A stretch of 51,464 nt of DNA from a virus (taxonomy: Duplodnaviria > Heunggongvirae > Uroviricota > Caudoviricetes), in IMG/VR virus record IMGVR_UViG_646311923_000011; one strand, 5' to 3'. Shown here piece after piece: positions 36,001-39,000 of this stretch (positions within the stretch are counted from its first letter, which is position 1; every line of letters begins with the position of its first letter). The position numbers are program-made.

Positions 36001-39000
36001 GCGTAATTGTTCAGGGGTAAAAGTCATTGTCTGGTTGTTCAAAAGAAACGCTCCATCTTACTGCTGTCAGTTCGTTTGTTGCTGTATCTGCGCGGCTGGG
36101 GCTGCTGCATTGGGGTGGAAAGAATCTGTGCGCTTTCCTGATCCACAGGCAGAAAATGTCCGTTATAAAAACGCCGGTAAATCGTCCCCAGAGAACCGTT
36201 ACGTTGTTTCGTGATATTGATTTCTGCTATGCCCCTGGCCTGCGTATCCGGGTTGTATACTTCATCCCTGTAAAGCATCAGAATAATGTCAGCATCCGCC
36301 TCTATTTCTCCGGAATTTTTCAGGTCTGAGTTCATAGGTCGTTTATTGGGTCTGGACTCCACAGCGCGGGAAAGTTGGCTCAGCGCAACCACCGGTAATC
36401 CGCCGAATTTTGCCAGGCCTTTAAGCCCTTTTGATATTTCCCCCACGGCAAGGTCATGGCGGCCTGTGGTTCGGGTTTTTATCAACCCGAGATAATCAAC
36501 CACCACCAGCGCCGTTTCCGGGTGTTTAATCAGATGGTGTTTCGTTGTTGCGCATATCTCATCAATCGTCAGGTTCGCCTGGTCCACCATCCAGATATTA
36601 CGTCCTGTCATTCGTCCCACACCCTGTGAGAAACGCGCCCAGTCTTCATCTTCAAAACGGGCAACAGATTTAAGACGGGATACCGGCATTCCCCCTGCTG
36701 CTGACACCATACGTTCACCAATCTGGATGTTCGCCATCTCCATGGTGAACAGAAGCACGCCATGCTCCTGCTCTGTCACCTTGTCGATGATATCCAGCGC
36801 CAGTTCGGTTTTCCCCATAGAAGGGCGAGCCGCAATAAATACCAGGTCACCGGGTTCCATGCCGCCTGTTTTTGCGTCCAGTTCATCAATACCGGTCATC
36901 AACGTCCTGGATTTCTCCAGCCCCTGATTCCGGCATTCAACACGCTCAACCACTTCCGGAAGCACATCATCAATATGCACAGGCTGTATGACGCCCTTTC
37001 CGGTTGATAATGAGACAATCATGTTCTGCGCATCCTTCAGGGCATCTTCAGCTGCGTCACAGGTATTCGCATCACGTAATTTCTGTAACGCCTCATTCAG
37101 TGTTTTTTCTGCATCGCGCAGTGCTGCATTGCGCCGCAACGCCGTAACATAGTGCTCCAGTGACGACTTCACCCAGGTTTTGCGCCCGGTGTCAGTAATC
37201 ACCGGGGCAAGTTCCGGCATCTCATTACACAGCAGCACAGGGTCAATCACTCCAGAAACACGTGCCTGTCTGCAGATGCCTCTGTAGATATCCCGGTACG
37301 GTCGAACAGAAAAAACCTCCGCCGGTAGTGTGGCCAGAATATCCATCACTTCCGGATCAGCACCACGCAGAAAAAACGCGCCAATCACTGCACCTTCCAG
37401 GTCATCATTACGCCACACCGGATTTGTCGGGTTTGTCATGCTGCCACACCTCTGATATGCGCACGGTAGCTTTCCCAACCAAACACCAGGCAGTTACGCC
37501 CACCATCAGTAACGCGATCCACAATCCGTTCACCAATGGACTCCTTGAGTTGTTCAAACGTCAGGTTGCTGATCAAAATTGTCGGTAAAACGCTTTCGTA
37601 ACGCGCATTTATGATTTCCTGCAGGATGGTTATCTCCGCAGGCGTACCGAACTGCACACCAACCTCATCGATAATAAGCAGGTCCAGCGATACAAAATGG
37701 TCAATAATTTCATCTTCAGTGCGTTCAGAATTGTGACGCCAGGTATTTTTCACAGCGCGGGTCAGTCGCATAACATCCGTAATTTCGACGGTCGCCAGGT
37801 GGTGGCGAATAATATTTTTTGCCATTGATACAGCCAGGTGATTTTTCCCGGTACCGCAATTGCCAATCATGATCATGCTGGTGCCTGCAGCGAGACATTT
37901 CTTCCAGGAAGCGGCGTAGCGCTGACAGGCTTCAAGGTTTTTCTGTGCGTCAGTATTCACCGCCTGATAATTATCAAACTCACAATCCTGGAACCGGCGG
38001 GCAATAGCGGCCTGATCGAGTAATTCACGAACCTTCAGGGCGCGTAATTCGTCATACACGCAGTCCAGCTCCTCACTGAGGCAGGAAAGGCAACCGGACA
38101 CCCGTTTGACAGCTTTCCCTCTTACATCCGGGCCTGTCAGCACATAGCGTGTGTATTTTCCGTGTTTCCCGCAGGACACCGTCTCAGTGCTTTGCACCCA
38201 ATGCTCACAGCGCCACGGACGCTTTCCGCCACGGACAAATGCCAGCTCCTCTTCCAGGTCTGCCTTGCGGTTAAGTAACTGCGCTTTGTCGTGTTGCATG
38301 TATTGTTTGTTCAGGAAATTAGTCATTTTCACCCCCCACAAAATCACCAGTTGAAGTTCGTTGAGCCGTAGTCCTGTTCACTGAATCCCGAGATCGGGAG
38401 GCTTTTGCCACGCCCACCTCCGGGGGCTGCTGGCTGTTGCCAGGATTCGTCAAAGTGCCGATCGGGGCCAAAGAACGTCGCAGCCTGCTTCACGAACTGT
38501 GTGCCGGTATTTCCTGTAGCACGTACCCAGGCGGCATACCGCTTCACGCCATCAAGCATGGTCTCCGGTTTTATTCCCTCCCTGATACGGGCTTTCCAGG
38601 CTTTGAAGGCTGCTGACTTGGAATTACCACCAGCACGTTTGGGGTATTCCTGCCAGGCCTGTTCAAATTCTGGTGAATATTCCTGTCGGGCAGAACGCGC
38701 TGGTGCAGACGCGTCAGCGGATGCGCCAATAGTGTTTTTACTCTCTGTAGTATTCTCTGAAGTAATCTCTGTTGTATTCTCTGTAAGATCGAAATTGGTT
38801 TTCCCTTCTCCGCGGCGAGGGGTTTCCCGTGTCCGCGGTGAAGGCTTTCCCTCCTCCGCGAAATCGGGTTTTACAGTTCCCCGAAAACGGGTTTCCCCAT
38901 TTCGGGAAAACTGATTGTTTTCATTGATAATTTCATTAAGGCGCTCACAATCTATACGGTAGAACATTTTGTGCTCAAGACGCTTGTTGGTTTCAACCAA

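Follow-up and report, generated by a model that had tools for sequence, protein, structure and literature searches.

Within a 51,464-nucleotide (nt) stretch of tailed-phage DNA (Caudoviricetes; IMG/VR record IMGVR_UViG_646311923_000011), which as a whole is called the window here, two arrays of direct repeats lie side by side inside the replication initiator gene of a prophage. These arrays are very probably the theta-type replication origin of the prophage, built like the origin of phage lambda (ori-lambda) and situated in the part of the initiator gene that encodes a linker between two protein domains. Origins that lie inside O-like genes are a known kind, and in this respect the present one is ordinary. 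What appears to be new is the conserved block of 12-base-pair (bp) units that forms one of the two arrays. It is tentatively suggested, as a possibility that falls somewhat short of an even chance, that the TACAGAGANTAC array is a hitherto unrecognised cis-element of phage origins shared across bacterial phyla, a sequence-specific box for opening and helicase entry that travels with one large superfamily of winged-helix initiators, irrespective of iterons, C-terminal domains, loaders or hosts, and is read by a conserved surface of the initiator complex, most likely as single-stranded DNA.

An earlier note on this DNA had described two direct-repeat arrays within the initiator gene at 38738-38913 as a candidate origin, and the sequence there is as described (Table 1). 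The 12-bp array has four units (Tandem Repeats Finder, TRF: period 12, 3.7 copies, score 67), the 23-bp array has five units at a constant spacing of 23 bp, and the peptide TENTTEITSENTTESKNT is encoded at the arrays. The coding-strand letters of the four 12-mers are TACAGAGAGTAA, TTCAGAGAATAC, AACAGAGATTAC and TACAGAGAATAC, which are translated as TENT-TEIT-SENT-TESK. The consensus TACAGAGANTAC matches the whole window seven times, against 0.96 matches expected, and three of the seven fall in 38738-38785. The core of the 23-bp repeats, or iterons, is GGGTTTCCC on the plus strand and is degenerate in unit four (GGGTTTTAC); the coding-strand consensus is roughly ATTTCGCGGAnnnGGGAAAnCCC, and every iteron has a partial CCC...GGG dyad that is 79-85% complementary. 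TRF and a repeat finder pick up the first three 23-bp units; the other two were recognised by eye. The partial sixth iteron that joins the arrays contains a GATC site (38787-38790), and the junction, ATTTCGATC followed by TACAGAG, is kept in enterobacterial relatives. The arrays take up about nt 325-500 of the gene, amino acids 109-167, between the N- and C-terminal domains (N-domain and C-domain), and the order in the orientation of the gene is N-domain, iterons, AT-rich block, GC-rich stretch and C-domain. At window positions 38865 and 38879, in the second and third iterons, the coding strand has G and C where 44 of 46 relatives have A.

Table 1. Coordinates of the proposed origin, the initiator gene and the genes that follow it.
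Feature	Position in window	Strand	Remarks
Replication initiator gene, 297 amino acids	38344..39237	-	ATG at 39237; GGAGG 5 nt upstream at 39243-39247
N-terminal DNA-binding domain, about amino acids 1-109	38911..39237	-	predicted winged helix
Predicted disordered linker, amino acids 110-184	38686..38910	-	AlphaFold2 predicted local distance difference test (pLDDT) < 50; holds both arrays
C-terminal helical domain, about amino acids 185-297	38344..38685	-	presumed helicase or loader contact
23-bp iterons, five	38797..38911	-	proposed N-domain binding sites
Iteron units in gene order	38889-38911, 38866-38888, 38843-38865, 38820-38842, 38797-38819	-	
Partial sixth iteron, 11 nt	38786..38796	-	AATTTCGATC; joins both arrays
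Tandem 12-mers, four	38738..38785	-	family consensus TACAGAGANTAC; proposed unwinding and helicase-entry element
12-mer units, plus-strand coordinates	38738-38749, 38750-38761, 38762-38773, 38774-38785		
Second low-stability patch	38899..38938	.	25-35% GC; dG -45.5, second least stable 40-mer
DnaC-like helicase loader (DnaC/IstB-like ATPase)	37436..38347	-	start overlaps initiator stop
DnaB-like replicative helicase	36039..37478	-	PF03796 E 2.4e-73; PHROG 19 E 5.9e-117

Could the arrays be a mere by-product of a low-complexity, repetitive protein linker, with no cis-acting role as DNA? They do lie within a linker that is predicted to be disordered, the 12-bp period is divisible by three, and the TENT/TEIT peptide repeat keeps the same frame in nearly all relatives, as would be expected from such an explanation. 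The 23-bp units, however, start in codon phases 2, 1, 0, 2 and 1 and the peptide that they encode has no repetition; since the units fall in three frames, a peptide repeat can not explain them. The fraction of matching letters at lag 23 in 38797-38911 is 0.685, against 0.254 +/- 0.049 in dinucleotide-preserving shuffles, and no shuffle out of 5000 attained the observed value at any lag between 6 and 39. For the 12-bp array the match fraction at lag 12 is 0.778, likewise attained by none of 5000. When synonymous codons were resampled with the protein held fixed, the lag-23 fraction was 0.468 +/- 0.047 and the observed value was again never reached (0/5000), which argues that codon choice maintains the DNA repeat beyond the need of the peptide. 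The bare 9-mer GGGTTTCCC is not enriched across the whole window (19 matches, 12.5 expected), and its phased clustering is its sole exceptional feature.

It had been stated in the earlier note that no distinct AT-rich unwinding block was identified next to the repeats. This needs correction, as the 12-bp array is itself the AT-rich block. Its GC content is 32-35% between flanks of 55-70%, and by nearest-neighbour energy the least stable 40-mer within 38201-39500 is 38728-38767, with a free energy (dG) of -44.6 (mean -55.9, standard deviation 4.3). In hosts whose GC content is 58-60%, that of the array is still 33-36%. Rather than a further group of initiator sites without a known role, the 12-bp array is the easily melted AT-rich block. 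The iterons are flanked on both sides by the two least stable stretches of the region. The patch on the far side, 38899-38938, encodes the conserved end of the N-domain (LNEIINENNQ), has no sign of function beyond coding and may have no separate role.

The proposed likeness to lambda, which places its iterons inside gene O, is borne out in the position and spacing of the repeats and in the order of iterons and AT-rich block. Origins of lambdoid phages are known to lie in the middle of gene O and to consist of iterons and an AT-rich region (PMC7466680). Both ori-lambda and the origin in P22 gene 18 lie, like the one in the window, in the linker-coding middle of the initiator gene, with four to five direct repeats that have partial dyads and are 20-24 bp apart, and with an AT-rich block just downstream in the direction of transcription. 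In lambda the iterons are spaced by 20, 24 and 23 bp, whereas the spacing in the window is a constant 23 bp. The iterons begin at nt 349 from the start codon of lambda gene O and at nt 327 here, and the AT-rich block at nt 434 and nt 442, respectively. The initiator gene is followed by helicase or loader genes in all three phages, and P22 encodes its own DnaB-like helicase as the window phage does. Lambda P, which takes over the host DnaB, is replaced here by a DnaC-like loader and the phage's own helicase. The sequences differ. The iterons of lambda and P22 are unrelated to those of the window and number four as opposed to five and a half, and their AT-rich block is of a ACAAAAGACA type common to both phages, in place of the tandem TACAGAGANTAC array. 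Lambda (L004, 622-680) and P22 (L231, 4925-4960) have different iterons but similar AT-rich blocks, CACAAAAGACACTATTACAAAAGA and ACAAAAGACAATATACAAAAGACAATAA, which loosely resemble the 12-mer (TACARARA). This block may represent another conserved kind of unwinding element, one associated with the N-domain of Phage_rep_O.

A similar situation exists in the Bacillus phage SPP1 and in certain plasmids. The SPP1 oriL lies within gene 38 and is made up of direct repeats together with an unwinding element that is AT-rich (PMC6316719). SPP1 shares with the window the gene order of organizer (G38P), loader (G39P) and DnaB-type helicase (G40P), with the origin inside the organizer gene. However, the SPP1 repeats and the AACAATGATAAC-like AT-rich block are unrelated in sequence to those of the window, the C-domain of G38P is a Phg_2220_C domain that the window protein does not have, and the loaders are of different types. 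Initiators of the RepA_N plasmids of Gram-positive bacteria, such as pSK41 RepA, have a winged-helix N-domain that binds iterons within the initiator's own gene. The window initiator gives weak N-domain fold matches to RepA-DNA complexes (5kbj and 4pt7) but no RepA_N sequence match in Pfam, and RepA_N systems are plasmids without a 12-mer array while the window is a phage with one. According to the description of TIGR01714, the low-complexity region of replisome organizers reflects the direct repeats of the origin, so the general idea is already established.

Natural exchanges of modules among phages indicate which parts of the origin belong together. The window initiator gene is identical to a prophage gene of E. 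coli strain 90-3040, and the same gene, at 95-97% identity and annotated as 'phage replication protein O', is found in Shiga toxin (Stx) 1 and 2 phages of E. coli O145 and O121 (GenBank LC5678xx). Among close relatives the gene length is 894, 909 or 921 nt, and the ori segment of three relatives differs where the 12-mer array ends, which hints at a possible additional unit. Phage phiP27 infects the same host species and has a similar DnaC-like loader and DnaB-like helicase, and its gene L17 shares the C-domain DNA with the window (95% identity) up to 38731, just beyond the 12-mers. However, L17 has a different N-domain (HTH_36), its repeats are of a 15-bp CAGAWTCTGA type, its AT-rich part is a 24-bp repeat, and 12-mers are absent. 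The motif thus travels with the module of N-domain and iterons. A phage called P27 has been reported to have a lambda-type O and six lambda-type iterons (PMC7466680), and its origin therefore differs in type from that of the window. Phage mEp460 and an E. coli O166 prophage have a different N-domain, a different C-domain and six 23-bp iterons of their own (TCAYTTTGACCYGATGG); the only 40 bp that they have in common with the window are the 12-mers, at 97.5% identity. From both swaps it follows that the iterons go with the N-domain. Different N-domains have the 12-mers in common, and these are independent of C-domain, loader, helicase and host.

The layout is widespread. Genomes and viral contigs were searched for protein homology to the N-domain, without use of the DNA motif for selection, and relatives of the N-domain were retrieved at 36-100% identity. 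The loci of this first family come from Yersinia, Morganella, Proteus, Serratia, Burkholderia, Caballeronia, Paraburkholderia, Kingella, Acinetobacter, a Pasteurellaceae metagenome-assembled genome (MAG) and two Terriglobia MAGs, with a protein identity of 36-85%. Nearly all of them have 4-8 repeats of 22-23 bp followed directly by 2-4 units that read TACAGAGATTAC or TACAGAGAATAC; codon phase and offset are as in the window. A second family, of the PM1/SpaA1 type, was chosen on protein homology alone, and the 12-mers are present at 56 of its 59 distinct loci. A pattern scan of viral contigs for two adjacent 12-mers gave at least 120 matching stretches, of which 80 are listed. The matches listed fall into at least 12 N-domain groups when the cut is set at 60% identity, and every group has iterons of its own, with a period of 22-24 bp; the C-domains form at least 10 unrelated groups, yet the 12-mer is unchanged. 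The iteron sequence therefore co-varies with the initiator N-domain, in agreement with the mEp460 and phiP27 swaps.

Annotated phages give the same result. A blastn search with a synthetic consensus returned 123 records, including Bacillus phages PM1, phiCM3, BceA1, phIS3501 and 0105phi7-2, Staphylococcus phages 37 and SpaA1, and phages of Geobacillus, Synechococcus, Acinetobacter, Klebsiella, Erwinia, Pseudomonas and Burkholderia. Where a feature listed under a match has an informative name it is only ever a replication initiator or a transcriptional regulator; the others are 'hypothetical protein' or unannotated. Six of these loci, five of them from distinct host groups, were read directly and the layout is alike in all six. 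In phages of Proteobacteria, Firmicutes, Cyanobacteria and Acidobacteria the 12-mer thus comes after iterons that are particular to each group, and the window itself has the common arrangement, in which two or more tandem TACAGAGANTAC units lie immediately 3' of iterons of about 23 bp that are specific to the family, within the initiator gene. One record, 'Xanthomonas phage SU1' (OR842880.1), has a replication region of 33% GC and an initiator nearly the same as in Staphylococcus phage 37, N-domain and iterons included. This would be odd in a phage of Xanthomonas and suggests a mislabelled host or a contaminant. The proteins P0006, P0009 and P0011, in which the 12-mers lie in another frame, look like frameshifted or truncated gene calls, as intact relatives keep the TEIT frame. 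A giant-virus contig (L116, about 9100-9200, minus strand) has tandem 12-mer letters in another frame, in an open reading frame (ORF) with NRDY-type repeats that is unrelated to initiators; it was set aside as probably chance or convergent low complexity.

The codons of the 12-mers place the constraint on the DNA. The 148 units of the two families chosen by homology give, as a position matrix, T A C A G A G A N T A C, with hardly any variation at positions 3-8 and 10-11 and no constraint at position 9. The Glu codon of the units is GAG in 37 cases and GAA in none in the window-type family, and GAG in 81 and GAA in none in the PM1/SpaA1-type family. Elsewhere in the same genes GAA outnumbers GAG by 201 to 150 and 542 to 292, so that with both families pooled Glu is GAG in 118 of 118 unit codons as opposed to 63% GAA elsewhere. 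The first Thr codon is ACA in 31 of 31 units of the window type and 101 of 104 of the PM1/SpaA1 type, while the share of ACA among the other Thr codons of these genes is 24% and 37%. In the invariant Thr and Glu columns of the N-domain all synonymous codons are in use. A Glu codon that is fixed as GAG in the units and is mostly GAA elsewhere points to a constraint on the DNA. The changes that do occur inside units alter the amino acid (ACA to TCA or GCA, GAG to AAG or GAT, and a third codon of ATT, AAT or ACT). Fixed synonymous sites together with tolerated amino-acid changes are the reverse of what is expected under selection on a peptide.

The arrays also persist where the reading frame does not. 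On Bacillus velezensis plasmids of 8.4 kb, iterons like those of PM1 are followed by three TACAGAGATTAC units and by the beginning of a C-domain, but there is no intact initiator frame. The copy in NC_022531.1 (pBamNAU-B3a) lies at 7240-7400 and is found in five near-identical plasmids, which are mobilisable; its only ORF, of 63 amino acids, is in another frame. This copy could be a decoy origin that titrates the phage initiator, a hitch-hiking origin or a decaying piece of a gene, and isolated 12-mer copies on plasmids may act as decoys or hitch-hiking origins. Inhibition of a phage by multicopy decoys of its origin is known from lactococcal phages. In two viral contigs the TEIT frame is broken at the arrays. 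In L140 (about 1-170) a TGA directly precedes the first 12-mer, and in L139 (about 11080-11280) some units of 11 nt shift the frame; these are either pseudogenes or cases of a DNA element kept without translation. Taken with the invariance of synonymous sites across phyla, the persistence of the arrays on plasmids leaves hardly any likelihood that they are a by-product of the protein linker.

The position of the 12-mers allows another explanation of their constancy. The block might be kept mainly as a stretch of homology for recombination between N- and C-modules, with the 23-bp iterons still serving as the origin. It lies exactly at the boundary of the two modules and joins the N-domain groups to the unrelated C-domains counted above, mEp460 and the window share nothing but these 40 bp, and the number of units varies among close relatives. 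However, exchange among phages of Bacillus, Synechococcus, Terriglobia and E. coli would be too rare to fix synonymous sites while the flanks are saturated. The junction between the window and phiP27 falls just beyond the block, which argues that the block moves with the N-domain and is not a neutral joint. The block is also the stability minimum beside the iterons, where an unwinding element is expected. Recombination as the main reason for conservation is therefore unlikely, and the two roles are compatible.

A role of the arrays as cis-regulatory sites has to be considered as well. The initiator might regulate its own gene through them, or they might make transcription or translation pause, so that the nascent initiator stays close to its template. 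The initiator is predicted to bind its own gene, bound protein could block RNA polymerase, and invariance of the 12-mer at the level of codons would also suit a signal read in the mRNA. The iterons and the adjoining AT-rich block are nevertheless arranged as in the proven origins of lambda, P22 and SPP1, and the surroundings of the replication genes showed no further candidate for an origin. The 12-mer stays the same although tRNA pools and pause signals differ among Firmicutes, Proteobacteria and Cyanobacteria. A YG step is part of the consensus elemental pause, and the 12-mer does not have one. Regulation can coexist with origin function, and regulation in place of an origin is very unlikely. 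The 12-mer was also compared with the DnaA box, the site of integration host factor (IHF), the extended -10 element and the RNA polymerase pause signal by their consensus sequences, and was rejected as any of these since the letters do not fit; in addition, IHF is not known from Firmicutes.

The initiator itself has been characterized by homology and structure prediction. It matches PHROG 270, 'replication initiation protein' (expectation value, E, 1.8e-64); weaker matches are to several PHROGs labelled 'O-like' or 'DnaD-like'. The RefSeq (PGAP) label on an E. coli relative is 'LvrA C-terminal domain-related protein'. No match was found in Pfam even at E up to 10 or in NCBIfam at E up to 1. 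These searches thus gave no RepA_N domain (Pfam) and no match to TIGR01714 or Phg_2220_C (NCBIfam, Pfam), the latter of which is matched by SPP1 G38P and by ORF012 of Staphylococcus phage 37. A PDB sequence search was negative. An AlphaFold2 model built from 29 homologues predicts an N-domain folded over about residues 1-113 (pLDDT 63-87 for residues 11-110; helix and strand pattern H-H-H-E-H-H-E-E-H) and a helical C-domain over about residues 185-255. The Foldseek matches of the model in PDB are generic and weak winged-helix entries of MarR and ArsR types (E >= 0.003), with the plasmid RepA entries 5kbj and 4pt7 at E of about 0.03, and support the fold class only. The mechanical ORF list starts the same gene at a TTG at 39330 (ORF 38344-39330).

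Comparison of N-domains suggests a possible link among the carriers of the motif. The N-domain of every 12-mer carrier examined has a conserved Y-W helix (hhxQhhYW, followed by a winged helix; FFGQIFYWQ in the window), most groups being judged by this motif alone. The window-type and mEp460-type N-domains are connected by BLAST single linkage. A comparison of the window and PM1/SpaA1 families by hhalign gave a probability of 86% and E of 5.5e-6 over 54 columns.

A mechanism can be proposed from these parts. Dimers of the initiator would bind the five 23-bp iterons through the winged-helix N-domain and form a wrapped complex, as suggested by the analogy with lambda O and by the co-variation of iterons and N-domain. 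The resulting strain would open the adjoining 12-mer array, the least stable stretch of the region. The C-domain would then recruit the phage's DnaC-like loader and DnaB-like helicase and load them on the opened 12-mers. The steps of binding, opening and loading are modelled on lambda and SPP1; the anatomy and the co-variation are observed. Support for the candidate origin thus comes from comparison, namely from the position in the linker, the iterons, the AT-rich block, the co-variation, and the loader and helicase genes.

The 12-mers seem to be more than generic AT-rich DNA, as judged from sequence comparison, being held across phyla and going with the N-domain superfamily. A motif that is constant letter for letter beside iterons that are specific to each group points to a conserved, sequence-specific step after initiator binding. 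What reads it? The phiP27 set of C-domain, loader and helicase is similar and occurs without the motif, which argues that the reader is not in this set. The motif spans Firmicutes to Proteobacteria, and lambda and P22 use another block in the same hosts, which argues against a host-specific factor. The Y-W helix in all carriers examined and the hhalign probability make some conserved part of the initiator complex the favoured candidate, and our best guess is that this part reads the 12-mers sequence-specifically, perhaps as single strands. Plasmid Rep proteins bind their own 13-mers as single strands. It has been reported that O proteins bind AT-rich single-stranded DNA, and that lambda O binds the AT-rich strand of its own origin (PMC7466680).

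Several points weigh against these interpretations. Of the five iterons, one has a degenerate core, and complementarity within the dyads is no more than 79-85%. Neither Pfam, NCBIfam nor hhalign detects the initiator as belonging to the lambda O family. The Phage_rep_O models PF04492 and TIGR01610 match the N-domains of both lambda O and P22 gp18 but not that of the window initiator, and the hhalign comparison of the window initiator with lambda O gave a probability of 0.1. Lambda has one copy of the 12-mer at 10 of 12 letters, which is not significant, and none was found in P22, in TP901-1 or, by eye, in SPP1 gene 38, so that the analogy with these origins covers the architecture and not the motif. 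There are few contrasting cases behind the link between motif type and N-domain superfamily, and the hhalign probability between two of the N-domain families is only 86%. The conservation of the 12-mer could serve priming, or the coupling in cis of translation to origin binding, and not unwinding. A full-text search of open-access papers, which could miss older work, found no paper on the 12-mer in either orientation or on its peptide, and no experimental study of any 12-mer-type origin.

For phages and plasmids whose initiators lack an ATPase, the way in which DNA is opened and handed over to the helicase is still unsettled, and the 12-mer offers a defined substrate for tests. If the proposal for the 12-mers is true, the TACAGAGANTAC array would be the phage counterpart of unwinding-region motifs such as the DnaA-trios and the 13-mers of RK2 oriV. 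A search for TACAGAGANTAC repeats could serve as a practical marker for the origin and the initiator gene in unannotated phages. For the window the result places the prophage origin and is useful for annotating Stx phages that have the same module, because replication has been reported to be necessary for effective toxin production by Stx phages (PMC7466680).

The initiator gene, the DnaC-like loader gene and the DnaB-like helicase gene follow one another in this order on the minus strand. The loader matches PF01695 (E 2e-16) and PHROG 50 (E 1.6e-80); its match to the DnaC model NF005931 (E 4.5e-43) is under the cut-off of that model. It has an N-terminal extension of about 95 amino acids with a Cys-rich pattern (CEHWVQSTETVSC ... 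CLSC) that is zinc-ribbon-like in appearance. The true start of the helicase is probably the ATG at 37439, which overlaps the stop codon of the loader. A scan for sigma-70 promoters around the origin gave two sites where 3.6 are expected by chance. Terminator-like sites number nine in the same surroundings, against a shuffle mean of 3.9, and none suggests an oop-like antisense unit. Unlike in lambda, no cII-like gene directly precedes the initiator gene. Upstream of it, at 39224-41165 on the minus strand, there are two small genes (PHROGs 1153 and 7046) and two regulator genes of the Rha/Ash/Ant type. Far from the origin, at 4636-4726, TRF finds a CCN-GGN-rich tandem repeat of 45 bp (2.0 copies, 84% match), which is possibly a collagen-like part of a tail-fibre gene.

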